From: Anaerolineales bacterium
GTDB lineage: Bacteria > Chloroflexota > Anaerolineae > Anaerolineales > Villigracilaceae
Reading direction: 5' to 3'
Length of the DNA: 56,747 bases
Assembly: GCA_022865905.1 (NCBI GenBank)
Contig: JALHUM010000040.1
Coordinates: forward strand, 1 to 56,747
In this document: in pieces, positions 6,474-40,480 of the stretch
How the letters are laid out: the number at the start of each line of letters is the position of its first letter
Position numbering within the stretch: the stretch's first letter is position 1
Program-made: the position numbers and the translations under genes
The notes under the pieces: model-generated
The model's input: only the letters and a program-made list of their open reading frames with translations
Databases searched by the model: none
Told to the model about the DNA's origin: nothing

Positions 6474-6550
6474 TTATGTTTTACGTTTCACGCTTTACGG
6501 GCAGCAAAAACGTAATGGTAGCCTTAGGCTACCATAATGCGAAAACATAA
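6474..6550. repeat. palindromic element (TTACGTTTCACGC ... ATGGTAGCC/GGCTACCAT core)
   Basis: Exactly fills the spacer between the thiolase stop and the DUF35 SD. Termini are TTATGTTTT..AAAACATAA. It shares TTACGTTTCACGC and the ATGGTAGCC..GGCTACCAT stem with 51751..51800. Confidence 0.65.
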
Positions 6551-6560
6551 GGAGACTCAC

Positions 6561-7112
6561 ATGGCTAAATTACCCTCTCGAAGAGAAGAAACCCTGGGCG
6601 GATACGTTGTCCACGGCCTGCCGTTCCCGGCCGATACCGACCCGGATTCGCTGGCTTTCCTAAAGAAGATGGCCCCCATCCTGATCGAGCAAGAATACAA
6701 AATTACTTACTTACATTCATACGGACAAGACAGCCCCTGGTTCGCTGGCCTGACCAACCGCCGCTTCCTGGGTAGCCAAGACACGAAGTCAGGCTACACC
6801 TACGCCAACCCGCGCGGCCATGACATGTTCAGCGGCGCAGAGACCGAGTGGATTGACATCACCGAGCGCCCGGCCAAAGTCCATGCCTTCACCGTCTGTC
6901 ACTTCGGTTCGGAGGAGTTCCTGCCAGAGTGCCCGTTCGTGTTGGCGTTGATCGAAATCGAGGGCGTGAACACGCTCTTCCTGACGCGGCTGATGGGCGT
7001 GGACCCCTACCAGGCCTCGCTGGATTGGATTGGCATGGAGGTGGGCCCGAATTTCCTGCGCAATTCCAAACTCAAGCCGACGGATGTCTATTTTTCGCCC
7101 CTGGAGAAATGA
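6561..7112 (+). CDS. DUF35-like OB-fold protein (thiolase partner)
   Basis: ORF 6537..7112, with the start moved to ATG 6561 after AAGGAG. The OB-fold segment ..KVHAFTVCHFGSEEFLPECPFVLALIEIEGVNTLFLTRLMGVDP..IGMEV.. sits immediately downstream of a thiolase-fold gene. The usual Zn-ribbon cysteines are not evident. Confidence 0.6.
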   Translation: MAKLPSRREETLGGYVVHGLPFPADTDPDSLAFLKKMAPILIEQEYKITYLHSYGQDSPWFAGLTNRRFLGSQDTKSGYTYANPRGHDMFSGAETEWIDITERPAKVHAFTVCHFGSEEFLPECPFVLALIEIEGVNTLFLTRLMGVDPYQASLDWIGMEVGPNFLRNSKLKPTDVYFSPLEK

Positions 7113-7152
7113 GTGACGAGGCGAATGCTTATAACATGTACTAAAAAAAACC

Positions 7153-7181
7153 TTGCATTTTGAATAAGTTTAGTGTATCAT
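7153..7181 (+). promoter_or_regulatory. sigma70-like promoter candidate (TTGCAT-17-TATCAT)
   Basis: TTGCAT at 7153..7158, a 17-nt AT-rich spacer, TATCAT at 7176..7181. It lies upstream of the class V aminotransferase gene. Confidence 0.4.
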
Positions 7182-7185
7182 AATG

Positions 7186-7226
7186 GCACGAACGCTTGGG
7201 TGCCCCCCTCACCCAGGCGTTCGTGC
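7186..7226 (+). promoter_or_regulatory. 16-bp stem-loop at the predicted 5' end of the transcript
   Basis: GCACGAACGCTTGGGT (7186..7201) pairs with ACCCAGGCGTTCGTGC (7211..7226), with one G-U pair and a 9-nt C-rich loop. No U-tract follows. Confidence 0.45.
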
Positions 7227-7268
7227 TTAATGGTTGCGCAGTCAGCAACTATAACTGGAGAAAACAAT

Positions 7269-8531
7269 ATGAGACTCGACATTGACGCCATACGAAAACA
7301 GTTCCCTTCTCTCGGCCGCCCGGCGATTTTCTTCGATAATCCCGGCGGTACGCAGATTGCCAAACAATCCCTCGACCGGATTACCAGATACCTGCTGGAG
7401 TGCAATGCCAATCACGATGGGGCTTTTGCCACCAGCGTCGCTTCAGACGCCATCCTGGACGAAGCCCACCGCGCCATGGCTGATTTCCTGAACGCCTGCG
7501 GGCCTGAGGAAATCGTCTTCGGTGCGAACATGACCACCTTGACCCTGTACATCAGCCGGTCCATTTCGCGGGGTTGGAAGGCTGGCGATGAGATCGTCGT
7601 GACCCGCCTGGATCACGATGCCAACGTCACGCCATGGGTGTTGGCCGCACAGGATCAAGGCTGCAAAGTTATTTGGGTGGATTTCCATCCCGAAGACGGC
7701 ACGCTGAACATGGAGGAGATGCAGGCCGCGCTGGAGCGTAAACCGCGCCTGATTGCCATTGGGTATGCTTCGAACTCACTGGGTACGATCAACCCGACGG
7801 CAAAGATCATCGAGATGGCGCACGCCGTCGGGGCGCTGGTCTACGTGGATGCAGTGCAGTATGCCCCGCACGGCCCGATTGATGTCCAGAAACTGGATTG
7901 CGATTTCCTGGTGTCCTCCGCCTATAAATTCTTTGGGCCCCATGCTGGTATCCTGTACGGCAAGCGCGAAATGATGGACGAATTGTTCGCCTACAAAGTC
8001 CGGCCGGCGACGAATGAGTTGCCCGGCAAGTTCGAGACCGGAACCCAAAACCACGAAGGGATTGCCGGTGTGCTGGGCGCGATCGAGTATTTCGAGTGGG
8101 TCGGGCGGGAATTCGGCTGCGAACACGTCGAGGGGTTGGCGGAAGATAGCTATCAGGGCCGCCGCATGGAATTGAAGAAGGCAATGACCGCTATCCGGTC
8201 GAATGAATTCGAACTCAGCCGTGCCCTGCTGGCTGCCCTGCAATCCATCCCCGGTTTGACCTTGTACGGACTTTCGGACGTGCGCCGCCTGGAACAGCGC
8301 GTGCCGACTTTTTCCTTCACGCTGAAAGGACAACATCCCCGGCAGGTGGCCGAGAAGTTGGCACAGAACGGCATCTACGTCTGGGATGGCAATTACTACG
8401 CCATAGGCGTCACGGAACGGCTCGAACTTGAGGAAAGGGGCGGCATGGTACGCGTCGGTGCGGTGCACTACAACTCGCTCGACGAAGTAGAAATGCTACG
8501 AGAGGCTCTGACCAGAATTGTTGCGGGGTGA
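7269..8531 (+). CDS. class V aminotransferase-fold cysteine desulfurase-family protein
   Basis: ORF 7173..8531, with the start moved to ATG 7269 (MRLDIDAIRKQFPSL..). Motifs: FFDNPGGTQ, TRLDHDANV, and the PLP lysine context VSSAYKFFGPH. Confidence 0.8.
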   Translation: MRLDIDAIRKQFPSLGRPAIFFDNPGGTQIAKQSLDRITRYLLECNANHDGAFATSVASDAILDEAHRAMADFLNACGPEEIVFGANMTTLTLYISRSISRGWKAGDEIVVTRLDHDANVTPWVLAAQDQGCKVIWVDFHPEDGTLNMEEMQAALERKPRLIAIGYASNSLGTINPTAKIIEMAHAVGALVYVDAVQYAPHGPIDVQKLDCDFLVSSAYKFFGPHAGILYGKREMMDELFAYKVRPATNELPGKFETGTQNHEGIAGVLGAIEYFEWVGREFGCEHVEGLAEDSYQGRRMELKKAMTAIRSNEFELSRALLAALQSIPGLTLYGLSDVRRLEQRVPTFSFTLKGQHPRQVAEKLAQNGIYVWDGNYYAIGVTERLELEERGGMVRVGAVHYNSLDEVEMLREALTRIVAG

Positions 8532-25873: not shown

Positions 25874-26107
25874 CTACTTCAAGTTTTGGTCGGCGTAGTG
25901 ACACGCCACGAAGTGACCCGGTACCAACTCCTCATAGGGTGGCTCCTCCACGTAACAGCGATCGGTCGCGACCGGACAGCGGGTGTTGAAATTGCAGCCA
26001 ATAGGTGGATTGACTGGGCTGGGGATATCCCCCATCAGGATGATGCGCTTGCTTTTTTTAGTAACATCTGGGTCGGGAACGGGGACGGCTGACATCACCG
26101 CCCGTGT
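25874..26107 (-). pseudogene. remnant of an OppF/DppF-type ABC ATPase (last 70 or so codons only)
   Basis: ..[65 protein letters not shown].. matches only the C-terminal oligopeptide-ATPase extension. No Walker A/B region is upstream. Confidence 0.7.
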
Positions 26108-26371
26108 TCGGATTGATAAATCAAATCGTGTTCTTGTCTAGCCATACCTCGGCGGCCATTGAGCCGTTGCGGATTGACGCGCGCTCTGCGTTGATTTCGA
26201 TTTGGACGGTTGTGGCGGGGGGGCGACCAGTGCCTGCGGCAGATCGTCACGGATTTCGGCATTCTCAGTGGCGCGCACACGCAGACTGTCAGACCCCCAG
26301 GGTTCGATCCGCACGGTCTGATGTCCCAGGTTCCAGACAAGTGTCTGATCCTGCCGCTCAAAGCCAGCCAA
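26108..26371 (-). pseudogene. remnant of a GH31-family glycoside hydrolase N-terminus (about 85 codons, frameshifted)
   Basis: MAGFERQDQTLVWNLGHQTVRIEPWGSDSLRVRATENAEIRDDLPQALVAPP.. The sense continues in another frame as [28 protein letters not shown]. Adding one C to the C7 run (G7 on + at 26217..26223) restores continuity. The fragment then abuts the OppF remnant. Confidence 0.5.
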
Positions 26372-26413
26372 GATTCACTCCTTAATCACTGCTTCCCTGT
26401 TCCTATTAACTCG

Positions 26414-27334
26414 TTAGATATTCAAACGCGGGTCCAGCGCGTCACGCAGGCCGTCGCCAAGTAGGTTGAACCCCAGCACGGTAATCACGATGGCAATGCC
26501 AGGAATGAACAGCAGGTGTGGAGCATTGAACAAATTGTTGCGCTCCTCGCCCAGCATCAGTCCCCACTCGGGTGTGGGCGGTTGTGCCCCCAGCCCCAGA
26601 AATGAGAGGGCTGCGGCGTCGAGTATAGCTGTCGCAATACCGAGTGTTCCCTGAACGATGAGGGGGGGCATGGCATTAGGCAGAATGTGGCGGAATAAGA
26701 TATGGGAGGGAGACGCACCCAGAGCGCGATCGGCGGTCACAAAGTCCAGCTCTTTGACCGAGAGCACGCTGGAGCGCACAATGCGGGCGTATTGCGGAAT
26801 GGAAACGATACTGATCGCCAGGAGCGTGTTGATCAATCCCGGCCCCAATACAGCGACGATGGCGATGGCGAGAAGCAGACTCGGAAAGGCCAACAGTACG
26901 TCCATCATACGCATGATCAGGTTATCCAACCAGCCCCCCACGTAACCGGATACCGCGCCGAGCAAGGTTCCCACCACGATCGCAAACGTTACGCATACAA
27001 ACCCGATCTGCAATGAGAGTCGGGAGCCAAAAACCACCCGGCTGAAAAAGTCCCGGCTGTTACCGTCAATTCCAAAGTAGTGCTCAGTCTGATCGGCGGG
27101 ACATCCCAGCAAATGGATGCACGGGGGGGTGTTGCGTTTGGCGTCGTCCAAAATCTTGGTCGGGTCGTACGTGGCGATAAACGGGGCAAAGATCGCAATC
27201 AGGATCAGCGTGCCCAACATCAATAGCCCTGTGACAGCGGAGCGTTTTTTAAGTAGATGGCGCAGTGCGTTGCGCCACAAACTGTTCGGCGGCCCAGCTG
27301 AAGCCTGGGTCTCCAGCGCGTTATCGAGTTTCAT
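26414..27334 (-). CDS. ABC transporter permease, OppC/DppC type (cassette 1)
   Basis: 306 aa. An N-terminal OppC_N-like segment, 6 TM helices, and an EAA-loop region (..SIVSIPQYARIVRSSVLSVKELDFVTADRALGAS..). Confidence 0.85.
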   Translation of the reverse strand: MKLDNALETQASAGPPNSLWRNALRHLLKKRSAVTGLLMLGTLILIAIFAPFIATYDPTKILDDAKRNTPPCIHLLGCPADQTEHYFGIDGNSRDFFSRVVFGSRLSLQIGFVCVTFAIVVGTLLGAVSGYVGGWLDNLIMRMMDVLLAFPSLLLAIAIVAVLGPGLINTLLAISIVSIPQYARIVRSSVLSVKELDFVTADRALGASPSHILFRHILPNAMPPLIVQGTLGIATAILDAAALSFLGLGAQPPTPEWGLMLGEERNNLFNAPHLLFIPGIAIVITVLGFNLLGDGLRDALDPRLNI

Positions 27335-27345
27335 TCAGTGCTCCA

Positions 27346-28422
27346 CTATTGAAGATGAATGCGCGGATCGAGATAAGCATAGGATGCATCCACGATGAGA
27401 TTGACCGTTACAAAAATGAGTGCGATGATGACAGTGAAAGCCTGCACGACAGAATAATCGCGCGCAAAGATGGAAGCCACGAGGAAGGTACCTACCCCCG
27501 GCAAGCTGAACACGGTTTCCGTCAGAACTGCGCCGCCCAGCAAAGTGCCTAGCTGCAGCCCGACAATGGTGATGATCGGCAGCATGGCGTTGCGCAGGGC
27601 ATGGCGAAGGATGACCACGCGCTCGGGTAGCCCTTTAGCGCGAGCAGTGCGAATATAGTCCAGTCCCATTACCTCCAAAAGACTGGAGCGCGTCATGCGG
27701 GCGATGATGGACATCGGGATCGTGCCTACAGCTATAGAGGGGAGGATCAAGTGGCGCAGTGCATCTCCCAGCACCTTCCAGTTCCCGGAGATGAGCGAGT
27801 TAAAGACGACCAGATTCGAAGCAAAGGTGACCAGAGCCAGTGGAATGCCGCTCAGGTTTTGGAGATGAAAGGTAACGGTGAGCGGCGTCACAGTCGTGCC
27901 CGGGGTGAGACGCCCTGAAGGCGCCAGCCAGAGTGGTGTACCTTTGAGCATGATCGCGAACAGATAAGCCAGCATAAGTCCCAACCAGAACACCGGCATC
28001 GAGACACCAAAGTTCGCAAGGATCATCGTCAGCACATCAATGATTGAATTGTGTCTGGTGGCGGAGATTATTCCCAATATAATGCCAACTACGGTCGCGA
28101 ACAGCATGGCGAAGATGGTCAACTCTACTGTCATAGGCAGGCGGAGCAGTACGATACCAACGACGGGCTGGCTGGTGCGCAGTGAGGTTCCCAGGTTTCC
28201 CTGCGCCAGATTGCCAAGGTAACGAACAAACTGAACAGCGATGGAATCATTGAGGCCTGTGCGTTCGCGGTATTGAAAGCACGACTCGGGTGTGAAATGT
28301 TCGCCTAGCGCCATCATGCAGGGGTCGCCTGGAATGAGCCGGCCCAGAGCGAAGGTGCTTAGCAAAATGCCAAACAGCACCGGGATAACCAGTATCAATC
28401 GCCGAACGAGAAAGCTTATCAT
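27346..28422 (-). CDS. ABC transporter permease, OppB/DppB type (cassette 1)
   Basis: ORF 27346..28506, with the start at MISFLVRRL (28422). EAA loop: ..MSIIARMTRSSLLEVMGLDYIRTARAKGLPE... Confidence 0.85.
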   Translation of the reverse strand: MISFLVRRLILVIPVLFGILLSTFALGRLIPGDPCMMALGEHFTPESCFQYRERTGLNDSIAVQFVRYLGNLAQGNLGTSLRTSQPVVGIVLLRLPMTVELTIFAMLFATVVGIILGIISATRHNSIIDVLTMILANFGVSMPVFWLGLMLAYLFAIMLKGTPLWLAPSGRLTPGTTVTPLTVTFHLQNLSGIPLALVTFASNLVVFNSLISGNWKVLGDALRHLILPSIAVGTIPMSIIARMTRSSLLEVMGLDYIRTARAKGLPERVVILRHALRNAMLPIITIVGLQLGTLLGGAVLTETVFSLPGVGTFLVASIFARDYSVVQAFTVIIALIFVTVNLIVDASYAYLDPRIHLQ

Positions 28423-28520
28423 TGTGTTGGACCGACCTCCGAACCAGAGTAAGGAGCGATGGGGCATTGCCCGGTGCAATGCCCCATCGCCAACACGATC
28501 ATACAAGAAGCAATCTGTTA

Positions 28521-30194
28521 CTACGGTGCGTTCAGCTGCTTGGCAAAGTAGCCGCTGAAGTATTCAAAGACGCCTGTGTTGCCCTTGTGCAGCGGATTCA
28601 AAGCATCCCACATCACGATAAAGGTCTCCACGACGTCATTCGCATCCATAGCTGTCTCGTCGCTGAACTTGGCGTTCTTGTTCAGGGTGAACGTCCACTC
28701 TTTCAAGTCTGCACTAGCCGTATAGCTTTCGGCAGCCGAAGGCACGAGTTCCGTCGTATCTGGCTTGTACCAATACAACGTGTCAAAGATGTGGTAACAG
28801 GGACGCAGCGTTTCACCGTCGGTCTCGTCGTTGCAGTACAGGCTGATCGGCTCGCCGTTCTGTATAAAGTTCAATTGATCCTGGCCCGGCACCGACATAA
28901 GGTTGAACATTTCGTCGGCCAGCGGGCTAGCCTGGGCGCCATCCACGGTCGCCTTATAGGCGATGCCGTTGGTGCCATGTGCAATGGGGATCATCGGTAT
29001 ATGCTGCTTGACTAACTCAGCGACTTTGGCGTATAGCGTATTGCGCTGAGCGGGGTCGGCCACCTGGCCGGCTGCGTGGATCGCATCGACGAGGTCGGGA
29101 TATACATCGCCGAAGTTCTTGGACGCGCCGGTAAAGTGAAAGTCGTAAAAGTTGGTCGGGTCGGGATAATCTGCGCCCCAACCCAGCATGAACATGCCTT
29201 GTTCGCCGGCGGCAACAGAGGCCAGGAATTTGCCGGATTCGATCGGTTCGAGCGTGACATTGACGCCGATCTGAGCCAATTGCGACTGGATCTCCTGCCC
29301 CACCTTACCGGGCAGCGGCAGATAAACGCGCACTACGTCGCGATAGGACAGGGTTGTCGAGAACCCGTTCGGGAAGCCCGCATCGGCCAATAGGCTCTTG
29401 GCCGCGGTGACATCATAGTCATACCACTTGAAGCCATCGATGTAGCCAGGCACCATTACAGGCGGGACGAACTGTTCAGCAATAATCGAGCCAGCCGGGT
29501 AATAGTTGTCTACAATGCGATTCTTATCGATCGCCATGGCCAGGGCTTGGCGCACTTTTTCGTTGTCGAACGGTTTGATGGTATTGTTAAAGCCCAGGTA
29601 AAAGACGTTGAGCCCGGTTCGCGGAAGCAATTTGAGCGTGGGATCGGCTTGTATCTTGGCAAAGTCATCCGGGCTGGGGTTGTCAATAATATCTGCTGTG
29701 CCAGCCTGCAGTTCCAGCAAGCGGGCGGCAGCTTCACTGTTCCAGCGAATGATGAACTCCTTGTTCTTGGGCGCGGGGCCCCAATAGTTCGGATTAGGAA
29801 CGAGAGTCAGGTGATCGCCGCGCACCCATTCCTTAACCATGTAAGGGCCGGTGCCAATGGGATTGTTGAGCAAATCAGCCCCGCCGCCCCCGGTCTTTTC
29901 CAGGTATGCAGCGCTCTGGATGCCGAATGCCGGGAAGGCCACCTTGGACAGGAAGGCTGGATCCGGCGTGCACAACGTGAACTTCACTGTGTATTGATCG
30001 ATGGCCTCAATGGACTTTATCTCTCCGCCATATGTGCAATCCGGGGCGGCCAGGCTCAACGGCTGGAAGGCAACCGGAGGGCTAGTTGGGACTTGCGTTG
30101 CCGGGACCACAGTGGTGGTTTTTGGCCCGCAGGCCGCCAGAATCATGCTGGTCAAAACGACCAGCGCTATGAGCAAAAACATTGAGCGTTTCAC
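28521..30194 (-). CDS. family-5 (OppA/DppA-type) solute-binding lipoprotein, apparently circularly permuted
   Basis: ORF 28521..30272, with GTG 30194 after GGAGAAAG preferred. Lipobox ILAAC. The usual N-terminal 117 or so aa (..QNGEPISL..DETDGETL..WTFTLNKNAKF..FEYFSGYF..) are at the C-terminus. See finding. Confidence 0.8.
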   Translation of the reverse strand: MKRSMFLLIALVVLTSMILAACGPKTTTVVPATQVPTSPPVAFQPLSLAAPDCTYGGEIKSIEAIDQYTVKFTLCTPDPAFLSKVAFPAFGIQSAAYLEKTGGGGADLLNNPIGTGPYMVKEWVRGDHLTLVPNPNYWGPAPKNKEFIIRWNSEAAARLLELQAGTADIIDNPSPDDFAKIQADPTLKLLPRTGLNVFYLGFNNTIKPFDNEKVRQALAMAIDKNRIVDNYYPAGSIIAEQFVPPVMVPGYIDGFKWYDYDVTAAKSLLADAGFPNGFSTTLSYRDVVRVYLPLPGKVGQEIQSQLAQIGVNVTLEPIESGKFLASVAAGEQGMFMLGWGADYPDPTNFYDFHFTGASKNFGDVYPDLVDAIHAAGQVADPAQRNTLYAKVAELVKQHIPMIPIAHGTNGIAYKATVDGAQASPLADEMFNLMSVPGQDQLNFIQNGEPISLYCNDETDGETLRPCYHIFDTLYWYKPDTTELVPSAAESYTASADLKEWTFTLNKNAKFSDETAMDANDVVETFIVMWDALNPLHKGNTGVFEYFSGYFAKQLNAP

Positions 30195-30344
30195 AATCTT
30201 TCTCCTCTCAAAATTTGGAAAAACTAAAGGTTGGGTTTGGGGGGAAACAAAAATAGTATCGCTGCCTGGCACCTCCTCTATCTAGTAATAAGGAACATTA
30301 GAGTTTATGCACAATAATGTTTTGATACAAAAGTAGGCTATGCT

Positions 30345-30444
30345 GTCATTGCGAGGAGCGTTCTTTGCGACGAAGCAATCCCCAGGTGGTCTGTTTTGCC
30401 TCATAATCGGGAGATTGCTTCGCCAAAGTGCGGCTCGCAATGAC
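30345..30444. repeat. GTCATTGCGAG...CTCGCAATGAC palindromic repeat
   Basis: GTCATTGCGAGGAGCG..CGAAGCAATCCCC....GGGAGATTGCTTCG..CGGCTCGCAATGAC. It is a variant of the GTCAYY..GAG family. Confidence 0.65.
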
Positions 30445-30479
30445 ACCTACGAGCGAATCTCTTATTGTGAATAGAATTT

Positions 30480-30507
30480 ATTATACAGCAAATTTACTAA
30501 AATGCGA
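30480..30507 (-). promoter_or_regulatory. candidate promoter of cassette 1 (TCGCAT-16-TATAAT)
   Basis: The minus-strand TATAAT is at 30485..30480 and TCGCAT at 30507..30502. The motif block AATTTGCTGTATAAT is conserved with 34902..34929. Confidence 0.35.
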
Positions 30508-30578
30508 CGTGTGGAATGCCGGGGCCGCGCAGATTTACCTCCGCCGGATTCGAGGGCCACACGCCAGCCACCGGCGCG
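30497..30578 (-). pseudogene. 3'-terminal fragment of a second AmmeMemoRadiSam-type radical SAM gene
   Basis: It encodes ..APVAGVWPSNPAEVNLRGPGIPHVAF-stop. The intact gene ends ..APVAGVWTANPESVNLQGHGIPRVAFL-stop at 34916. Homology stops abruptly at 30578. Confidence 0.75.
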
Positions 30579-30684
30579 TCGCCTGGTCAGCGACCTGGAA
30601 CGCGCGGTAGGTCGGCTGGAGAAGAACGTCAACGCCCGTTTGTTGGCTGAGGTGCTGCTGTTGGATTGGCGGAAGATAAAATAA
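30579..30684 (+). pseudogene. 3'-terminal fragment of a second holB
   Basis: It encodes ..RRLVSDLERAVGRLEKNVNARLLAEVLLLDWRKIK-stop. The intact holB ends ..RRVVTDMEHAVDRLERNVNARLLAEVLLLDWPHIK-stop at 25445. Confidence 0.75.
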
Positions 30685-30715
30685 ACCCGACAGGCATGTA
30701 ATGGCCTGTCGGGTT
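30684..30715. terminator. hairpin terminator between the holB fragment and cassette 2
   Basis: AACCCGACAGGC-ATGTAATG-GCCTGTCGGGTT is a perfect 12-bp stem. Downstream of the intact holB only the left arm survives (GACCCGACAGGC at 25446 onward). Confidence 0.55.
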
Positions 30716-30737
30716 CGCGTTTGCTGGAATACAGCGA

Positions 30738-31697
30738 TTACATGTGCCGCGAGCTGTGCGGGTCGAAGGCGTCCCGCATCCCATCTCCCATCAGGTTGAT
30801 GCTAAGGATGGTAAAGATGATGAACAGGCTCGGGAAGACCCACATCCACCAGGCGCCTCTTTGTATAAAGGACTGGGCGCTGGTGAGCATGTTGCCCCAC
30901 GAGGCGGTCGGCGGTTGGACGCCCAGGCCGAGGAAGGATACGTAGGCCTCCATCAGGATGGCGCCCGCAAGGCCCAGGGTGGCCGAAACGATGATGATGC
31001 CCAACGTATTCGGCACCAGGTGATTGAAGAAAATGCGGGAATTACTGGCGCCGAGCGATCTGGCAGCAGAAATATAATCCATTTCCTTCAACGAAAGAAC
31101 ATTCGCCCGCACGATACGCGCCAGGTACATCCAGGAGGTCAGACCGATGACCAGGATGACAATCCCTACACTTCCGCTGAAGGATAGGCCGAAGATATTG
31201 ATTGTTTGAACATCCTTGCCCAGGAACTTGCCCAAAACGATCAGCAGGAAAAGGGACGGGATGGAGAGCATCGCTTCGGTAAAGCGCATCAGGATCGCAT
31301 CCACCCAGCCGCCATAATAAGCGGCTACGCCTCCCAGAACGGTTCCAACAGAGATCTCGATAACGACCGCTAGAAGGCCAACGATCAAGGAGATCTGCCC
31401 ACCATAGACGACCCGGCTGAAACTATCCCGCCCGATGCTGTCGGTTCCGAACCAGTTTTCGGCGGAAGGCGGCGTTAAGTTCGCTTTCAAATCTACTGAG
31501 TTCGCCTTTTCGAGAGGGATGAAAATCGAACCGACGATGATGAAAAGCAATAGAAGAGCAATCCCAATCCCCCCGGCCAGCGCCATCTTGTGCTTACGGA
31601 AACGCCTCCAGATCAATTGACCGGGGGTCAGCGCGGCGCCGGTAGATTCTGCTTTTAGCGTAGAAATTCCGTTTGAGTTCAAGGTATCCGACGACAT
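30738..31697 (-). CDS. ABC transporter permease, OppC/DppC type (cassette 2)
   Basis: ORF 30738..31715, with the start at MSSDTL (31697). EAA loop: ..TSWMYLARIVRANVLSLKEMDYISAARSLGAS... Confidence 0.85.
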   Translation of the reverse strand: MSSDTLNSNGISTLKAESTGAALTPGQLIWRRFRKHKMALAGGIGIALLLLFIIVGSIFIPLEKANSVDLKANLTPPSAENWFGTDSIGRDSFSRVVYGGQISLIVGLLAVVIEISVGTVLGGVAAYYGGWVDAILMRFTEAMLSIPSLFLLIVLGKFLGKDVQTINIFGLSFSGSVGIVILVIGLTSWMYLARIVRANVLSLKEMDYISAARSLGASNSRIFFNHLVPNTLGIIIVSATLGLAGAILMEAYVSFLGLGVQPPTASWGNMLTSAQSFIQRGAWWMWVFPSLFIIFTILSINLMGDGMRDAFDPHSSRHM

Positions 31698-31711
31698 AGG
31701 CTCTCCGTAGA

Positions 31712-32671
31712 TCAACCCAAACGAATACGCGGGTCAACGAGGGTATAGACCATATCCGTGATGATCGTGAACAGTACCACCGCAGTAGAAACGATCAACA
31801 GCACGCCGAGCACCACCGGGAAGTCGCCGCGCTGGGCGTATTCCCAGAACAGCCGTCCCATGCCGGGCCAGGCAAAAACGGACTCGGTCACCAGCGCGCC
31901 GCCGAGCAAATAGGGAATGTCCAATCCGATAATGGTCACAAACGGCAGGGCGGCATTGCGCAAGGCGTGCTTATAGAGCACGGCCCGTTCGGTGAGCCCC
32001 TTGGCGCGCGCCGTGCGGACATAGTCCATGCCAAGAACTTCCAGGATACTGGAGCGAATAAAGCGGGAATAGTTGGCCGTTGTGATGATGACCAGCGCCG
32101 ATACAGGCAAGACCATGTGGCGTACTAACTGGCCCAGATCTTTTGGATCCCAAATATCTGCTCCAGTCGGCATGTAAGGCCAGCCCATCTGTTTAAACTT
32201 GACCGCAAAGATCAAGATCAGTCCCAAAGCGATGAAAAAGATCGGCATGGAATAGCCGACGAATGAAAAGGTTGTGATCAGGTTGTCCAGAAAAGAATAT
32301 TGCTTGACGGCTGAAATGATCCCCAGTATCAAAGCGACTGCCAGGGTGATGATCTCGGCCGTTACCATGAGGATGAGTGTCATCGGAAGGCGTTGGGCGA
32401 TCATCAATGAAACAGGCTGCTTGGAAAAGAAAGATTTACCCAACTCGCCTTGCACAGCCAACCCCAGCCAGCGCAGATATTGCACCGGCAAGGGCCGGTT
32501 CAGCCCCAGGCGCTCACGCAGCGCGGCGCGGTCAGCGGCGCTCATGTTCGGGTTGGTCGCATACTGGGCCAGGGGGTCCGCCGAAAGGCGTGTGAGGATA
32601 AAGCACAAGACGGTGATGATTAAAAGAGTGAAGAGGGCTTGGACCAAACGACGTGCCAGGTAAGACCACAT
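31712..32671 (-). CDS. ABC transporter permease, OppB/DppB type (cassette 2)
   Basis: ORF 31712..32707, with the start at MWSYLARRL (32671) after GAGGAG. EAA loop: ..SRFIRSSILEVLGMDYVRTARAKGLTE... Confidence 0.85.
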   Translation of the reverse strand: MWSYLARRLVQALFTLLIITVLCFILTRLSADPLAQYATNPNMSAADRAALRERLGLNRPLPVQYLRWLGLAVQGELGKSFFSKQPVSLMIAQRLPMTLILMVTAEIITLAVALILGIISAVKQYSFLDNLITTFSFVGYSMPIFFIALGLILIFAVKFKQMGWPYMPTGADIWDPKDLGQLVRHMVLPVSALVIITTANYSRFIRSSILEVLGMDYVRTARAKGLTERAVLYKHALRNAALPFVTIIGLDIPYLLGGALVTESVFAWPGMGRLFWEYAQRGDFPVVLGVLLIVSTAVVLFTIITDMVYTLVDPRIRLG

Positions 32672-32744
32672 GCGCAACTCCTCGGCTTTCTCATGGAATT
32701 TGACCAAGTATGCTACAGGCTGGGTTTTGCGTCAATGGTATTCA

Positions 32745-32880
32745 TTATCAGTAATTCACGAAAAGGCTTCGTAGTGGCGACTTCCCTGGCACCGCCCGCC
32801 AGGGCAGGTGTAGTCGCTTTTTCGCCGCACGACTGAAGTCGCCACTACGATTTCGTGATCTACTGATTATACAGAGTTTA
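32745..32880. mobile_element. MITE-like element with 19-bp imperfect TIRs (ATCAGTAnnTCACGAAA) around a TAGTGGCGAC palindrome
   Basis: The left end is TTATCAGTAATTCACGAAA. The reverse complement of the right end is ATAATCAGTAGATCACGAAA (17 of 19 match). The core is CGTAGTGGCGACTTC...GACTGAAGTCGCCACTACG. No TSD could be identified by eye. Confidence 0.55.
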
Positions 32881-32941
32881 TATGGCATGAGAGGCAGGGA
32901 GATTTCCCTGCCTCTCAATGTCATTCTACAACTTTGACTTG

Positions 32942-34750
32942 CTACTTGACGTCCCAGACCTCGGAGTTCCAGTCCAGGTTGCTCGCAAAGCCGAAGGGGC
33001 CGGGCACAAAGCGATCCACCATGCCGTAGACGTTGGCACGGGCGTACATCATGACAACTAAGTAGTTGTCGAAGATGTATTTCTGCAACTCATCAATGGC
33101 TACCTTGCGGGCGGCCGGGTCAGCGGTAGCGTTCACCGCTGCCATCAGTGTATCCAGGGCGGGATCGCAGATATGATAGTTGTTCGCGCCGGATGGGTTG
33201 CCCGTACTCGGTACGGTTTTGCAGGCGTAGCTATCCTCCACGCCCGTCATCGGGTCGGGATAAAAGCCAGTGGTGTATCCATCCATATCGAACTTGCCAG
33301 TCGCCATGTTACCGCCGTCGCTATAACCAGCGAAGAAGGTGCCAGCCGGGGTGTGGATCGGCTTGAACTCGATGCCAATTTTCGCCAGGTCAGACTGAAC
33401 CGCAGTGGCAATATCAATACGAATCGGCGCAGTGGTGGTCTCGAAATTGAAGGACAGCTTGGTTTCCACACCATTGCACATACCAACGCGGATGCCATCC
33501 GCGCCGAGGGTGTAGCCGGCCTGGTCGAGCAAGGCGGCGGCCTCGGTGGGATTGTAGGCGTCCGGCGTCAGGCTGGCGTTCGTCCATGACGAGTTTGGCC
33601 ACTGCGTGGCGGGAACGATTGTCTCGCCAGCCAGAAGGCTATCCACAATGGTCTGGCGGTCGATGCCGAGGGTAATGGCCTTACGGACGCGTACATCCTT
33701 GAACGGGCAGAAGCCGTCCAAATCGGAGATGCCCTTGCCATCCACGCCGGCGGTGGTGCCCAGGTTGAAGAAGTAGTGCTCGAAGTCAAAACCGGGCTTT
33801 ACCACCAGGTGGACAGCCGGTTCGAGGGCGCCCACGGTAGTGATATCAGACTCTGCAAAGTTCGGATACCAGTCCAGATCGCCGGTTTGCAATGCTGCCA
33901 GAGCGGTGTTCGAATCGGGTACGAACTTGATTTGGACTTGATCGAGCTTGGCGCGGCCCGAAAAGAAGTTCGCGTTGGGCAGCAAGGTCATGTGATCGCC
34001 CGCGACCCATTCTGCGATCACCCACGGCCCGGATGAAATGGTCGGCCAGTGAATAAAGGGATCGCCCTCCAGGGCAGTATGGCCTTCCAGTATGTGCTTG
34101 GGCATGAGGGAACCATAGTTGTTTGGGCCCTGGGTGAACAGGGTCTGCCATGGCGGGTATAACTCGCTGAAGTGAAGCACAACGGTTGTATCGTCAGGGG
34201 TGTCTATGCTGGTGATCTTGTCATAGCCTACACGGGTCATGGGGGCATTGCCGGGATCCATGATGGCCTGCCAGGTAAACAAGACATCTGCGGAAGTAAG
34301 CGGCTGGCCATCCGACCAGAACAGGCAGGGCTTGAGGTGCCAGGTAATGGTCAGGCCGTCCGCTGAGACTCCGCCATTGGCTGCACTCGGAACCTCAGCG
34401 GCGAGTTCAGGCACGAAGGTGCCATTCTCATCCCATTCCCCCAGTCCAACCACGGTCAACTGGGAGATCCAGGCGGCATAAGACATCTGAGTAAACTCAG
34501 AAATAATGTTGTCAGGCTCCTGATCCCAGGCGCCGGTCACGGACTTGCCGCCGGATGGGAAGGGAATCGGCTCAGTGCCTACGGGTGTGCAGGCTGCCAC
34601 GGGAGGCTGGGTGGCCTCAGGCGGTTGGGTCGCAGCAACGGGTGGTTGGGTTGCAGGCGCCGTTGTGGGTGTGGTCGTCGGACCACAAGCCGCCAGTGCC
34701 AGGCTTGCCAGCACCAGCAGCGAAAACAGTAGATAAAATGAACGTTTCAC
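32942..34750 (-). CDS. family-5 (OppA/DppA-type) solute-binding lipoprotein, canonical topology (cassette 2)
   Basis: 602 aa. Lipobox LALAAC, a Pro/Thr/Gln linker with repeated ATQPP, then the normal order of SBP_bac_5 blocks (..LTITWHLKPCLFWSDGQPLTSADV.. early, ..GPWVIAEWVAGDHMTL.. in the middle). Confidence 0.85.
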   Translation of the reverse strand: MKRSFYLLFSLLVLASLALAACGPTTTPTTAPATQPPVAATQPPEATQPPVAACTPVGTEPIPFPSGGKSVTGAWDQEPDNIISEFTQMSYAAWISQLTVVGLGEWDENGTFVPELAAEVPSAANGGVSADGLTITWHLKPCLFWSDGQPLTSADVLFTWQAIMDPGNAPMTRVGYDKITSIDTPDDTTVVLHFSELYPPWQTLFTQGPNNYGSLMPKHILEGHTALEGDPFIHWPTISSGPWVIAEWVAGDHMTLLPNANFFSGRAKLDQVQIKFVPDSNTALAALQTGDLDWYPNFAESDITTVGALEPAVHLVVKPGFDFEHYFFNLGTTAGVDGKGISDLDGFCPFKDVRVRKAITLGIDRQTIVDSLLAGETIVPATQWPNSSWTNASLTPDAYNPTEAAALLDQAGYTLGADGIRVGMCNGVETKLSFNFETTTAPIRIDIATAVQSDLAKIGIEFKPIHTPAGTFFAGYSDGGNMATGKFDMDGYTTGFYPDPMTGVEDSYACKTVPSTGNPSGANNYHICDPALDTLMAAVNATADPAARKVAIDELQKYIFDNYLVVMMYARANVYGMVDRFVPGPFGFASNLDWNSEVWDVK

Positions 34751-34901
34751 GTTTCTCTCCTCCTACAAAGAGAATGATTGGGGTTGGGTTATGGTTGCCG
34801 GTTGCGCAACCATTGTCGAGCGAGTCGGACAGTTTGGTCAAAACTAGCGATAGACCACCTCCTTTTATCGAAAACGACGGTTTCTTAGAATGTGAGGATA
34901 C

Positions 34902-34929
34902 ATTATACAGCAAATTCATAAAAATGCTA
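34902..34929 (-). promoter_or_regulatory. candidate promoter of cassette 2 (TAGCAT-16-TATAAT)
   Basis: The minus-strand TATAAT is at 34907..34902 and TAGCAT at 34929..34924. It overlaps the stop region of the radical SAM gene, and the block is conserved at 30480..30507. Confidence 0.35.
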
Positions 34930-36031
34930 CACGCGGAATCCCATGTCCTTGAAGGTTCACAGACTCAGGATTCGCTGTCCAAACCCCGGCCACCGGCGCG
35001 CCGCATTTCGGACAGGCGCCCTGCGCGGTGATCTGGTAATCCGTAATGGTGTAGGCCAGACGCCGGACGAGGGGATGATTGCACTTCGAGCAAAGGGTCG
35101 CCTCGTAATCCTCCACCCGTCCCGGCAGGTTGCCGGCATAGACGTGGCGCAGACCGGCCTCCCGTCCGATATCCGCCGCCCGGAGCAAGGTACGGGCTGG
35201 CGTCGGGTCTGGATCGGTCATCTGGTAATCCGGGTGGAAGGCCGTCACGTGCCAGGGAATGTCTGGCGAAACAGCGGCCAAGAAGCGCGCCGCCTCCCAC
35301 AGTTCCTCGTTGCTGTCGTTGAAGTCGGGCACGATCAGCGTCACCACCTCCACCCACAGCCCCATTTCGCGCGCCCGCCGGATGGTATCCAGCACGTTCT
35401 TGAGCACCCCGCCCAGCCGACGGTAGTTCTTGTCCTGCATGGATTTCAAATCTACTTTGTAGGCGCTCAGGTAGGGGCGCAAGTATTCCAGGGCTTCCGG
35501 CGTGGCGTTGCCGTTGGAGACGTAGACGCACTTCATCCCGGCCGCAACGGCCTTTTTAAAAATAGCCACCGCCCACTCGCTGGTGATTAGTGGCTCGTTG
35601 TAAGAGGAGGCAACCAATTCTGCGCCCATGCGCCGCCCGAAGGCCACGATCTGCTGTGGCGTGATCTTGCGAATGAAGTTGATGGAATCATCCGCCTGCG
35701 GGTCGCGCAACGCCTGCGAGGTCAACCAGTTCTGGCAGAAACCGCAATGGAAATCGCAGCCCAACATGCCGAAGGTCAGCGCGGTCGCGCCGGGCAGCAC
35801 GTGGAAGAACGGCTTTTTTTCGATCGGATCGGCCTGCAGACCGGCCACGTAGCCCCACGGGACGCGCAACTTCCCACCCGCGTTGAAACGCACCTGGCAG
35901 ATGCCGCGTTTACCTTCCCGGATGAGGCAGCGATGAGCACAAGCTGTGCAGCGCACTACGCCCTCTTCTTGTTTTGTGTAAAGCTCGCCCTCGATCGTCA
36001 ATTCGTCTAACATCTTTGCCAATGCCACCAT
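34916..36031 (-). CDS. AmmeMemoRadiSam-system radical SAM enzyme (PFL-activase-like)
   Basis: N-terminal CTACAHRC cluster, a radical SAM CDFHCGFCQNW motif, and a C-terminal CSKC..CPKC zinc-ribbon-like tail. Confidence 0.8.
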   Translation of the reverse strand: MVALAKMLDELTIEGELYTKQEEGVVRCTACAHRCLIREGKRGICQVRFNAGGKLRVPWGYVAGLQADPIEKKPFFHVLPGATALTFGMLGCDFHCGFCQNWLTSQALRDPQADDSINFIRKITPQQIVAFGRRMGAELVASSYNEPLITSEWAVAIFKKAVAAGMKCVYVSNGNATPEALEYLRPYLSAYKVDLKSMQDKNYRRLGGVLKNVLDTIRRAREMGLWVEVVTLIVPDFNDSNEELWEAARFLAAVSPDIPWHVTAFHPDYQMTDPDPTPARTLLRAADIGREAGLRHVYAGNLPGRVEDYEATLCSKCNHPLVRRLAYTITDYQITAQGACPKCGAPVAGVWTANPESVNLQGHGIPRVAFL

Positions 36032-36934: not shown

Positions 36935-38332
36935 CTATTTCTTTCCCCTCTTGCTTCTCGCCCCATGATACGCCGGCGCGGTGATCGCATAGATCGTGCA
37001 CAGGCGTGCATCCAGCATCCGCGAGCGGATTCTGGCATCTATCTCTTCGAGCGTTTCGGCGGTGGTGATGACGGTCGGCAGTTCGGCGTTGTAGCGGTAG
37101 TTGAATAACTGGTAGAGTTTTTCGCGTACCCAGGTACTCACCGACTTCGTGCTAAGGTCGTCCAGGATCAGTAATGGCGCAGTGCGGATTTCGTCGAAGC
37201 GGCGGTCATAACTGACAGTGCTCGTGGGGCTGAAAGTGGCGCGCAGGTGGTCGAACAAATCTGGCGCGGTGACGAAGATCGGCGGCGTGCCCATGCCCGC
37301 ACGGTGGTTGGCAATTGCTGCAGCCAGATGGGTTTTACCGCAGCCATAGGAACCGGTGATGACCAGCCAGCCGTTCGGCCTCTCTGCAAAGGCAACCGCG
37401 GCTTTGTTGGCTTTTTCCATTGATCTGATCTTATCCGCTTCCAGGCCCTCGTCTTCGCGCAGGGAGAAATTGGCGAAAGAGCACTTGGCAAGCAGGCCGA
37501 GGGAAGATAGATTGGGGTGGCCGGTGTCGTCGGTCGGGCGGCGGTAATCGGGGACAATGATCCGCAATACGCTAACGAGTTCAGGGTCTTTTAAACGTGA
37601 GCGGATACGATCTTCGATTTCATCGAGAGATACGTTGGCTGTAACCACCAGCGGCAGGCGATTGATGTAGCGGTAGTTGACGATCTGGAACAGTTTTTCC
37701 TGCGCCCAGGCGGTGGCGTTCTGCGTGCCGAAATCATCCAACACCAACAAAGGCGCATTGCGAATTTCATTGAAGCGATCTTCGAAAGTCGTGTCCTCGC
37801 TATTGAAGGAAAAACGCAGCAGGTCGAGCAGGTCAGGGACGGTCAGGAACAGCGTAGGCACACCCATGCCGACGGCGAAATTGGCGATGGCAGCTGCCAG
37901 GTGAGTCTTGCCGCAGCCGAAACCGCCCTGCAGGAGCAACCAGCCGTGCAGTGAGGCGGCGTACTGGCGGGCAGTGTTGTAGGCGATCTCCAGCAGATTA
38001 GCCTGCCATTCTCCCAGGCCAATCCGGCCGCGCGGCTGAAAGGTCTCGAAGGTCAGCTCTATGAGTTCGTCAAGGTGGCTCAGGGAAAAGAGCCGCTCCC
38101 GCACCGCGCGCATCACGTCCGCCCGGCGGCAGGTGCAAATTTCAAGTTTACCGAAATCGGGGTGGCCGAGCGGCAGGTCGCGGCGCAGGTAACCGGCCCC
38201 GTGACAATGGGGACAGTTCGGGTCGCCGAGGGCTTCGATAAGCCGTTCAATGTTCGATGTACTCGGCGTACTCGCCTTCGACGTACCGGCGGCCATCTTC
38301 TTGAGCGTTTTGTCTATCTTGCTTTTTGACAT
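36935..38332 (-). CDS. tandem-duplicated DnaC/DnaI (IstB-like) AAA+ helicase-loader protein with N-terminal zinc ribbon
   Basis: Zinc ribbon CPHCHG..CTC. Module 1: GGFGCGKTHLAAAIAN / LLVLDDFG / VVTAN. Module 2: GSYGCGKTHLAAAIAN / LLILDDLS / VITTA. It follows the dnaB and DnaD-domain genes. Confidence 0.8.
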   Translation of the reverse strand: MSKSKIDKTLKKMAAGTSKASTPSTSNIERLIEALGDPNCPHCHGAGYLRRDLPLGHPDFGKLEICTCRRADVMRAVRERLFSLSHLDELIELTFETFQPRGRIGLGEWQANLLEIAYNTARQYAASLHGWLLLQGGFGCGKTHLAAAIANFAVGMGVPTLFLTVPDLLDLLRFSFNSEDTTFEDRFNEIRNAPLLVLDDFGTQNATAWAQEKLFQIVNYRYINRLPLVVTANVSLDEIEDRIRSRLKDPELVSVLRIIVPDYRRPTDDTGHPNLSSLGLLAKCSFANFSLREDEGLEADKIRSMEKANKAAVAFAERPNGWLVITGSYGCGKTHLAAAIANHRAGMGTPPIFVTAPDLFDHLRATFSPTSTVSYDRRFDEIRTAPLLILDDLSTKSVSTWVREKLYQLFNYRYNAELPTVITTAETLEEIDARIRSRMLDARLCTIYAITAPAYHGARSKRGKK

Positions 38333-38942
38333 GGCCTTCCACCTTCCAACGTTTCAAAATTGCTTCCACATAACGCCAGTTGCGCTTGTTATTCTTGACG
38401 GCGATCTCCAGCGCCTCGGCCACCCACTCCGGCGCATAGGTCTGCTCGGCGTCTTTCAGGGCGTCAGCGATGAGCGGCGTCAGCGGACCGATGTTTTCCT
38501 CGTATAGCTTGAAAATATTGGGGCGTTCCGCTAGAGGCGCAGAGGGGGGACGCATGGCGGCGCGCCACTCACCCTTTTGCATGGATGCGGCGGCGGCGCG
38601 GCCGCGCGGCGTGTTCAGGAAGTAAAAGACGCCCGCCTCACTCTCGACCCCTCGATCTTCGCCTCGGGGCGACGCCCTGAGTAGGCTGCCGCGCTGGACG
38701 GCTTTTTCCAAGGCTGCATCTAAATCTGCCCCGCCCAGCCCGCGTATGAAATCGGCATCCTCGGCGAACTCAGTGCGGCACAGGAAGTGCGCCCCGCCTT
38801 CCATATGCGTGATGCGCCACAAGGCATACAGCGTGACCTTCAACTCAGCCAGGTCGTCTATCTCGTTCAATAGCTTGCGGAAGAACGAGTCGGGCACCTG
38901 GGTAAAGGTTTCGGAGCCGGTGAAACCCTGGAACATGTCCAT
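38247..38942 (-). CDS. DnaD-domain (DnaB_2) replication initiation / primosome protein
   Basis: A winged-helix-like N-terminus (..LKVTLYALWRI..) and a C-terminal DnaD domain ..NIFKLYEENIGPLTPLIADALKDAEQTYAPEWVAEALEIAVKNNKRNWRYVEAILKRW... It overlaps the longest form of the loader ORF by 86 nt. Confidence 0.7.
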   Translation of the reverse strand: MDMFQGFTGSETFTQVPDSFFRKLLNEIDDLAELKVTLYALWRITHMEGGAHFLCRTEFAEDADFIRGLGGADLDAALEKAVQRGSLLRASPRGEDRGVESEAGVFYFLNTPRGRAAAASMQKGEWRAAMRPPSAPLAERPNIFKLYEENIGPLTPLIADALKDAEQTYAPEWVAEALEIAVKNNKRNWRYVEAILKRWKVEGHVKKQDRQNAQEDGRRYVEGEYAEYIEH

Positions 38943-38971
38943 GCTCTGTTACGGCAGCCGCATGGCTACCA

Positions 38972-40480
38972 CTATTGGCTATCCTCACCCGGCGGTTCTT
39001 CGGGCGGTTTCGGTTCACGGCGTGATTTGGCGGACCGCTGAGGTTCGGCGAAGTCAATGGTGCGCGTGGCCGCGTTCTCGAACTTTGCCAGTGTGCTGCG
39101 GAAGATGAGTTCGATGCTGCCGGTCGGGCCGTTGCGGTGCTTGGCGATAATGATCTCGGCCACGTTCTGTTTGACCGTATCCTTCTCGTATTGGTCTGGG
39201 CGGTAGATGAACATGACCACGTCCGAATCCTGTTCCAAGGATCCAGATTCTCTCAAGTCTGAGAGCACCGGGCGCTTGTCAGTGCGCTGCTCGACGGCGC
39301 GGGAGAGCTGGGCGGCGGCCAGCACGGGTACGTTCAGCTCGCGTGCCAGCACCTTGAGATTGCGTGAGATATACGAGACCTCCTGGACACGGTTCTCGGT
39401 ACGGACGTCGCCGCCCATCAGTTGCAGGTAGTCCACCAGCACCAGGTCGAGGCCGAATTCCATGTGCAGGCGGCGGCACTTCGTCCGCAGTTGCAGTGGG
39501 GAGATGGCAGGCGTATCGTCCAGGAAGATGTGCGTGTCGGACAGCACTTCGACCGCCTGGGTGAAGAGCGGCCACTCGTCCTGGTTCAGCTTTCCGGTGC
39601 GCAGACGCTGGGAATCGATCCCAGTCTCCTGCGCCACCAGGCGTTGGACCACCTGTTCGTTGGACATCTCCAGCGAGAAGATGGCGACGTGTTTCTTGTG
39701 CAGCATGGCGGCGTTCTTGGCCGCCGAGAGCAGGAAGCCGGATTTTCCCTGACCGGGGCGGCCGGCAATGATGAGGAAATCGGAGGCCTGCATACCGGTG
39801 AGCATCCGGTCGAGGTCGATGAAGCCGGTTGGGACGCCGAAGATTTCCTCCGGGCGGCGGGCCAGCTCGTCAATCCGGTCGTAGTACTCGCTCAGCACCA
39901 CGGAGATCGGTTGGAGGTCGTGACGCAGTCGCCGTTGGCTGACGTCGAAAACCGATTTTTCGGCTTCCACCATCACCTGTTCGACGCTCTCGTGCTCGTC
40001 GTAGGCCAATGTGGCGATCTGGTTGGCGGCGTTGAGCATCCGGCGGCGGATGGCGGCCGCCTCCACCATGTGACCGTAGGCCTCGGCATGGAGCGAAGTG
40101 GGCACCTGGTTGAGCAGAGCGGTCAGGTAGGCCGGGCCGCCGATCTCGCCCAATTGTCCGGCGCGGTCGAGTTCCTCAGTGACGGTCAGGATGTCGAGCG
40201 GGGTGCGTTGCTCGTGCATACGGGTGAAGGCCTCCCAGATCCAGCGGAGGCGGTGGATGTAGAAATCGTCCGCCTGCAGGAACTGGGCCAAGTCGTAATA
40301 CACCTCCGGGTTAATCAACACGGCCCCCACAACAGCTTCTTCGGCTTCTCGGTTGTGGGGGATGGTGGGCATCGAGGGGAAGCTCCCTGTTGGGGGGAAG
40401 GAGATCCCTTCGACAGGCTCCTCGACAGGTTCAGGGCTTCGGCTCAGGGCAGGTTCTTCGGGAGGCGGCAGGTCGCTCAT
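38972..40480 (-). CDS. dnaB: replicative DNA helicase DnaB
   Basis: ..PHNREAEEAVVGAVL.., Walker A GRPGQGKSGF, ..IFSLEMS.., ..LVLVDYLQLM.., ..LSRAVEQR.., ..LRESGSLEQDSD... No intein. It has Pro/Glu-rich N- and C-terminal extensions. Confidence 0.95.
   Translation of the reverse strand: MSDLPPPEEPALSRSPEPVEEPVEGISFPPTGSFPSMPTIPHNREAEEAVVGAVLINPEVYYDLAQFLQADDFYIHRLRWIWEAFTRMHEQRTPLDILTVTEELDRAGQLGEIGGPAYLTALLNQVPTSLHAEAYGHMVEAAAIRRRMLNAANQIATLAYDEHESVEQVMVEAEKSVFDVSQRRLRHDLQPISVVLSEYYDRIDELARRPEEIFGVPTGFIDLDRMLTGMQASDFLIIAGRPGQGKSGFLLSAAKNAAMLHKKHVAIFSLEMSNEQVVQRLVAQETGIDSQRLRTGKLNQDEWPLFTQAVEVLSDTHIFLDDTPAISPLQLRTKCRRLHMEFGLDLVLVDYLQLMGGDVRTENRVQEVSYISRNLKVLARELNVPVLAAAQLSRAVEQRTDKRPVLSDLRESGSLEQDSDVVMFIYRPDQYEKDTVKQNVAEIIIAKHRNGPTGSIELIFRSTLAKFENAATRTIDFAEPQRSAKSRREPKPPEEPPGEDSQ

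Follow-up and report, generated by a model that had tools for sequence, protein, structure and literature searches.

A probable peptide-binding lipoprotein of Chloroflexota with a circularly permuted DppA-like chain

Results

A solute-binding protein gene with its N-terminal block at the end

We analyzed a 56,747-nt stretch of an Anaerolineales genome (contig JALHUM010000040.1 of GenBank assembly GCA_022865905.1; "the window" hereafter means this whole stretch) and describe here a minus-strand gene at 28521..30194 that encodes a solute-binding protein (SBP) of the OppA/DppA type (Pfam SBP_bac_5, PF00496). The original prediction, made from the sequence alone, had held that the blocks of this protein stand in swapped order, and both the PF00496 halves and the DppA alignments presented below are indeed inverted. 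The gene lies in a minus-strand open reading frame (ORF) of 28521..30272, whose best-supported start is a GTG at 30194. Since a Shine-Dalgarno sequence (GAGAGGAGA, 30201-30209) stands 6 nt upstream of this GTG, which also agrees with the MK.. consensus start of the homologues, we prefer it as the most likely start of the permuted gene. The parts of the gene and its product are as follows, where aa numbers count amino acids of the permuted protein (the query in all searches) and pLDDT is the predicted local distance difference test of the structural model.

28521..30194, minus strand: complete gene for a circularly permuted DppA-like solute-binding lipoprotein, 557 aa plus stop (ORF; GTG with Shine-Dalgarno sequence; PF00496 at 305 bits in two stretches; 120 full-length homologues)
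30129..30194, minus strand: signal peptide and lipobox, aa 1-22, ..SMILAAC22G.. with Cys22 (sequence reading; helix 2-20 in the model; A21/C22 nearly invariant in the family)
30060..30128, minus strand: Pro/Thr-rich flexible tether, aa 23-45 (pLDDT 45-52, without secondary structure; Pro/Thr-rich linkers behind a transmembrane helix in fused relatives)
28887..30059, minus strand: core, aa 46-436, equivalent to mature DppA ~124-507, containing the remainder of domain II, the domain I strands, lobe 2 (domain III) and the old C-terminus (PF00496 63-366; PDB alignments; Foldseek)
29328-29330, minus strand: R289, equivalent to DppA Arg355 (residue mapping)
29169-29171, minus strand: D342, equivalent to DppA Asp408 (residue mapping)
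28878..28886, minus strand: junction, aa 437-439, an almost direct passage from old C-terminus to old N-terminus (DppA 505 = query 434; DppA model position 534/535 = query 435)
28524..28877, minus strand: relocated N-terminal block, aa 440-557, equivalent to mature DppA ~2-120, containing the first strand of domain I and the first part of domain II and ending at the new C-terminus (PF00496 1-52; DppA alignments)

The relocated block had been placed at about 28524..28874, essentially where we find it. The predicted lipobox (LAAC, Cys22) and Pro/Thr linker are likewise both present, the linker with low pLDDT. The segment ..SMILAAC22G.. matches the pattern [LVI][ASTVI][GAS]C of bacterial lipoproteins, and the permuted SBP is accordingly a predicted lipid-anchored lipoprotein. 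The permuted family has two conserved cysteine pairs, C53/C75 and C455/C466. C53, C75 and C466 are conserved at 90% or above, and C455 is part of the family consensus; none of the four aligns with a DppA cysteine. C53 (30034-30036) and C75 (29968-29970) flank the first hairpin after the new N-terminus, and a disulfide between them may staple that hairpin.

Profiles and structures match in two swapped stretches

When the whole permuted protein was compared with PF00496, it scored 305.4 bits (gathering cutoff 32.4) in two stretches, as the original prediction had expected of a permutation, and there was no single collinear alignment. Scanned alone, aa 46-436 matched profile positions 63-366 with 261.9 bits (at aa 57-359), while the last 121 residues, aa 437-557, matched positions 1-52 with 49.3 bits (E 5.3e-13); each piece by itself exceeds the gathering score of the family. 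Profile positions 1-52 correspond to aa 482-533, so the canonical chain order, with the N-terminal block before the core, does not hold. The neighboring SBP gene at 32942..34750, which had been called canonical, gives one collinear PF00496 match (aa 112-510 = profile positions 2-363), as it should.

The same inversion was seen with individual proteins. In a phmmer search of PDB sequences, three DppA-type structures (5f1q, 1dpe and 3m8u) each matched in two swapped stretches. For Yersinia pestis DppA (5f1q), query 57-442 corresponds to chain 150-541 and query 458-549 to chain 48-146 (independent E value 1.9e-8); for Escherichia coli DppA (1dpe, mature numbering), query 59-434 corresponds to 124-505 and query 469-551 to 32-120 (independent E value 4.1e-8); and GbpA (3m8u) shows the swapped pattern of both. 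Among the best 60 of 96 and the best 60 of 101 matches, the core maps to PDB chain positions ~105-540 in canonical order, and no PDB chain is collinear with the protein or the family profile past profile position ~449.

The best-scoring NCBIfam model was the DppA equivalog NF043070, which matched in two stretches with 242.4 bits, below its cutoff of 1005. This model ends (position 534/535) at query 435, and the strand QLNFIQ (aa 440-445) sits at the place of DppA strand 1; therefore, the old C- and N-termini are joined via only 2-4 residues. Domain II of DppA comprises residues 34-182, and the chain is opened, at about mature DppA 120-124, in a surface loop of this domain.

The predicted structure is a single fold that keeps the peptide-clamping residues

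AlphaFold2, run on a 116-sequence alignment, returned a single fold with a pLDDT of 93 and a predicted template-modeling score (pTM) of 0.86; pLDDT was 89-97 across the junction residues 430-460 and 91-98 in the relocated block. The best Foldseek matches of the model were the DppA structures 5f1q and 1dpp, with ~390 aligned columns, a root-mean-square deviation of 2.1-2.4 Å and template-modeling scores, normalized to the target, of 0.70-0.71, which is as expected because a sequential aligner sees only the collinear ~77% of the target. From homology and the model, the relocated block would fill the place of the DppA N-terminal block in three dimensions. Secondary-structure assignment of the model with DSSP gave a short strand at 47-49 and a bridge at 554, which suggests that the two new ends of the modeled chain lie side by side.

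In E. coli DppA, R383 and D436 of the precursor (R355 and D408 of the mature protein) bind the carboxyl and amino termini of the dipeptide (PMC12136057). These residues map to R289 and D342 of the permuted protein, and both are invariant in 116 family members.

The permuted order is conserved across Chloroflexota

The original prediction had called for a search of related genomes for orthologues with the same order, and such orthologues were found as hundreds of sequences in several Chloroflexota classes. All 120 of the closest database relatives, which come from many independent assemblies, are collinear with the permuted protein over 90-100% of its length at 53-95% identity, and in each of them the DppA N-terminal block matches once, at the C-terminus. 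In a wider, exhaustive search against 1.84 billion cluster representatives at 50% identity, 101 of the 150 top representatives had the permuted order, at identities down to ~31%, and canonical two-stretch proteins started only at E ~1e-72. A divergent permuted member (locus L040, 28% identity) seeded a second search, which recovered a Limnocylindrales-type subfamily with the block after the core in 119 of 119 matches; its named members are labeled Candidatus Limnocylindrales or Chloroflexota. Throughout the permuted family, the breakpoints are identical.

Every taxon label that we encountered on a permuted protein is Chloroflexota. The closest loci, with 90-93% protein identity, belong to Chloroflexota metagenome-assembled genomes ("uncultured Chloroflexia bacterium"), and the named close homologues carry the label Anaerolineales. 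In the GTDB species genomes, the permuted order is present at loci L001-L038 and L040, all in Chloroflexota; L039, also from a Chloroflexota genome, proved canonical on translation, so the phylum holds both forms. Candidates from Firmicutes and other phyla (L041, L042, L047, L050, L057 and L063), which had been picked because their tblastn matches reached query ~520-540, were canonical once translated and were rejected as permuted relatives.

We also compared the ratio of nonsynonymous to synonymous substitution rates (dN/dS) against ten orthologues. With values of 0.06-0.30 in the relocated block and 0.04-0.21 in the core, purifying selection acts on each of the two pieces.

In three of the related loci (L032, L033 and L035, at about 4100-7720), a single dppBC pair is preceded by two permuted SBP genes that lie in tandem. 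Separately, one 575-aa protein (P0124) resembles the end of one permuted copy fused to the start of the next.

Permease genes follow the permuted gene

The single uninterrupted reading frame with cognate permeases downstream that had been predicted is borne out: the ORF is intact and is adjoined by dppB- and dppC-like genes.

27346..28422, minus strand: dppB-like permease gene, directly downstream of the permuted SBP gene (NCBIfam Opp2B 296.8 bits, DppB 285.8 bits)
26414..27334, minus strand: dppC/gsiD-like permease gene (NCBIfam GsiD 320 bits, DppC 282.7 bits)

In every related locus with enough flanking sequence, the permuted gene is followed by dppB and dppC, an association of the OppBC/DppBC type, and in at least nine of them (L004, L006, L009, L011, L017, L020, L032, L033 and L036) a gene for an ATP-binding cassette (ABC) ATPase comes after dppC. 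By a search for Walker A and LSGGQ motifs, neither of the two adjacent SBP-permease modules of the window has its own ATPase gene, and both must rely on ATPases that are shared or come from genes at another place.

Upstream of the permuted gene, its leader (window 30343-30441, minus strand) contains a near-perfect hairpin of ~100 nt, GUCAUUGCGAG...CUCGCAAUGAC, with a minimum free energy of -50.4 kcal/mol (z = -5.5 vs. shuffles). An Rfam scan of 26000-36000, which includes this hairpin, gave no family match, and the hairpin is absent upstream of the permuted gene in related loci; it is possibly a palindromic mobile or REP-like (repetitive extragenic palindromic) element, or a regulatory stem. 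Further away, and unrelated to the permutation, the minus strand of the window carries a run of replication genes (36935-40480) for a 465-aa protein with IstB/DnaC-like and DnaA-type AAA+ matches, a DnaB_2 (DnaD-like) protein and a DnaB helicase.

The permuted module recurs as the C-terminal domain of longer proteins

Among the 101 permuted representatives, about 20 reach 700-1400 aa and carry the permuted DppA-like module as their C-terminal domain. In front of this module stands either a second type of binding-protein domain or a cytoplasmic signaling domain, followed by one predicted transmembrane helix and a Pro/Thr-rich linker. Of 19 long representatives tested, eight are Pkinase fusions (P0126, P0128, P0146, P0160, P0187, P0191, P0202 and P0210); others carry TIR_2 (two: P0132 and P0162), Peptidase_C14 with FHA (one: P0129) or zinc ribbons (P0177), and in two (P0122 and P0152) the permuted module stands behind Peripla_BP_6. 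Judged by these domain orders, the permuted module looks like the sensor ectodomain of Chloroflexota receptor kinases, TIR proteins and caspase proteins.

Discussion

A probable permuted receptor for a Dpp-type importer

Very probably, the gene encodes a functional, lipid-anchored DppA-type peptide-binding protein that serves as substrate receptor of a DppBC importer and is circularly permuted relative to every characterized cluster C binding protein. The chain is opened in the domain II surface loop, and the old C-terminus (DppA ~507) is joined to the old N-terminus (DppA ~1) through the 2-4 junction residues, with the consequence that the first ~120 residues of the canonical fold come last. 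The ligand would be a short peptide, caught by the usual Venus-flytrap closure and handed to DppBC. The main consequence of the new topology would be that the membrane tether (lipid anchor and Pro/Thr linker) leaves from domain II and not from the first strand of domain I.

Several points weigh against this interpretation. No ABC ATPase gene was found in the 56.7-kb window when Walker A and LSGGQ motifs were searched with a strict filter, and the transporter is locally incomplete. Because the score of 242 bits falls so far short of the 1005-bit cutoff of the DppA equivalog, the exact ligand is uncertain. Homology and a confident pTM are the grounds for placing the relocated block where DppA has its N-terminal block. 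Finally, in a rough neighbor-joining tree of the cores, which has very short internal branches, 79 permuted representatives form one clade and seven divergent ones stand unresolved beside the canonical proteins. A single origin of the permuted family is nonetheless likely, and it is favored because the breakpoints are identical.

Origin of the permutation

Most simply, the permuted chain would descend from a canonical DppA-like ancestor whose copies were fused in tandem, head to tail, before both outer ends were lost. The N- and C-termini of canonical oligopeptide-binding proteins lie close together beside the domain I sheet (PMC10924461), in agreement with the earlier claim that both termini lie in domain I, and because of this closeness a near-direct join is feasible. 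Tandem SBP_bac_5 proteins of two to five copies do exist (P0145; P0245, 1600 aa; P0222, P0223 and P0238, 2754-3461 aa), and in P0145 (1202 aa) two complete canonical copies stand head to tail without an intervening signal peptide. By analogy, these fusions resemble the intermediate type required by duplication and trimming, and they are the sole support that we found for that origin, which we infer.

In a mosaic history, the gene would have lost its N-terminal block and taken up a C-terminal one from another SBP gene. The topology would be the same, and such a route was weighed for the permuted glucose-binding protein TpMglB-2 by its authors (Brautigam et al., PMC4990184). The history is not directly observable and the tree is poorly resolved, which leaves such a capture some room. 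Against it, the relocated block (37%) and the core (35%) are about equally similar to one and the same set of nearest canonical DppA-like representatives, and in the PDB both pieces match DppA-type structures best; for these two reasons, one ancestral gene is to be preferred to a mosaic. In addition, the old termini are joined almost without a linker, as in the P0145 fusion and as duplication with trimming predicts. We consider a mosaic improbable.

The locus also contains a duplication scar, which the original prediction had taken to fit a tandem-duplication origin of the permuted gene. The scar itself is real: a 106-nt repeat links 30473-30578 with 34895-35000 (minus strand) at 72% identity. 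The stretch 30473-30600 (minus strand) is a pseudogene relic, made up of the last ~27 codons of a radical S-adenosylmethionine (radical-SAM) gene (34916..36031) and the sequence just past its stop; it translates as APVAGVWPSNPAEVNLRGPGIPHVAF followed by two stops, vs. APVAGVWTANPESVNLQGHGIPRVAFL followed by one stop at the end of the true radical-SAM gene. In three related loci (L003, L013 and L014), the radical-SAM gene lies directly upstream of the permuted gene with no insert, and a fourth (L005) is arranged like the window. As read from these arrangements, the relic shows where the canonical SBP-permease module (30738..34750) was inserted, next to the radical-SAM gene on one side and a gene that was already permuted on the other. 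We therefore rejected the idea that the local scar caused the permutation, an ancient event common to the whole family; the scar is unrelated to it, and duplication with trimming is still an inference.

Transport, signaling or artifact

Beside the favored role as an importer receptor, the protein might chiefly act as a tethered peptide sensor for membrane receptors, with the permease link being secondary. The module does form the C-terminal, apparently extracytoplasmic domain of Ser/Thr kinase, TIR and caspase-FHA proteins with a single transmembrane helix, canonical DppA also signals to the chemoreceptor Tap (PMC8050422), and the motif search found no ATPase gene in the window. However, the copy in the window is a stand-alone predicted lipoprotein, and the dppB-dppC pair that follows in all sufficiently flanked relatives, together with the ABC ATPase genes of at least nine loci, is the standard arrangement of an importer. 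This makes signaling as the main role unlikely, slightly more so than a mosaic history. As for an assembly chimera or a decaying gene, in which misassembly or a recent deletion joined the start of a neighboring or duplicated SBP in frame at about 28870 and left a nonfunctional product, the tandem permuted genes of some relatives (L032, L033 and L035), the P0124 fusion of copy end to copy start and the scar in the window would speak for it, but it is effectively refuted, with next to no probability left, by an order and breakpoints that recur in several hundred independent sequences, spanning several classes of Chloroflexota and many assemblies, by a dN/dS of the block far below 1, by the confidently folded junction and by the conserved permease synteny.

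Comparison with known systems

We found no natural permutation described in the literature on OppA/DppA-type proteins, where TpMglB-2 and engineered permutants were all that we encountered, and none in the PDB, in line with the original prediction, which knew of no permuted SBP_bac_5 member. The best match in both sequence and structure is canonical cluster C, represented by DppA (E. coli 1DPP/1DPE, Y. pestis 5F1Q) and GbpA/HbpA (3M8U, 3TPA), with 30-34% identity in the core. The permuted protein shares with DppA the Pfam family, the peptide-clamping Arg and Asp and the DppB/DppC partners. It differs in that DppA 1-120 comes after DppA 124-507 and the new termini lie in domain II, in its predicted lipid anchor with a Pro/Thr tether, in its own near-invariant C53 and C75 and in a score far under the NF043070 equivalog cutoff.

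TpMglB-2 (Tp0684) of Treponema pallidum is a naturally permuted glucose-binding lipoprotein of cluster B, for which a "cluster Bc" has been proposed, and its authors offered adaptation to tethering as a speculative reason for the topology (PMC4990184). There too, one lobe has its N-terminal strands at the C-terminus of the chain, the permutation characterizes a family, found mostly where the protein is membrane-tethered, and the protein still binds its ligand (PMC4990184). Unlike the Chloroflexota family, TpMglB-2 is of the cluster B glucose/galactose type, belongs to another Pfam family and has other breakpoints; its permuted segment is poorly similar to the canonical N-terminus, whereas the Chloroflexota block is clearly similar (E 1e-8 to 1e-21). 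The permuted Chloroflexota family is the cluster C counterpart of "cluster Bc", an analogue and not a member, and is likewise predicted to be tethered. Among ABC binding proteins, TpMglB-2 is the only natural precedent that we found.

Periplasmic binding-protein folds withstand circular permutation in engineered biosensors. Permutants built for this purpose (e.g., PMC6335823) show that the fold tolerates joined native termini and new termini in surface loops; they differ from the present case as laboratory constructs of cluster B, D or F rather than a natural conserved family, and we found no report of an engineered permutant of the OppA/DppA fold. The tandem SBP_bac_5 fusions (P0145, P0245, P0222, P0223 and P0238) resemble the permuted family in presenting "core then N-terminal block" at their internal junctions, with a direct join, but they keep complete canonical copies on both sides, and an ancestral relation to the permuted family would be conjecture.

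Significance

A new topological variant within a well-studied SBP class is well supported by sequence, conservation and prediction. For the structural classification of binding proteins, it would form a new topological subclass, parallel to "cluster Bc". It also offers a natural experiment on folding order and tether position in a Venus-flytrap protein that docks on a permease, and it hands engineers who permute cluster C scaffolds an evolution-validated breakpoint and a junction of near-zero length. For annotation, it is a warning: profile matches to permuted proteins are split, and domain-boundary or equivalog logic truncates or underscores them.

The fusions to Ser/Thr kinases, TIR and caspase-FHA proteins point to peptide sensing in Chloroflexota, where there is little experimental signaling biology. 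A more speculative thought, which we hold to be possible but rather doubtful, is that the permutation is an adaptive rewiring, in which domain II took over the membrane tether that the first strand of domain I had carried. A DppA-type protein would thereby have become a module able to work while its N-terminus is anchored, and would serve tethered peptide uptake and sensing across the phylum, in a "cluster Cc" parallel to "cluster Bc". If true, this could explain why the permuted protein has spread among several classes of Chloroflexota, where it is the lipoprotein receptor for Dpp-type importers, and why its module was repeatedly recruited as the extracytoplasmic sensor of single-pass proteins with Ser/Thr kinase, TIR or caspase-FHA domains.

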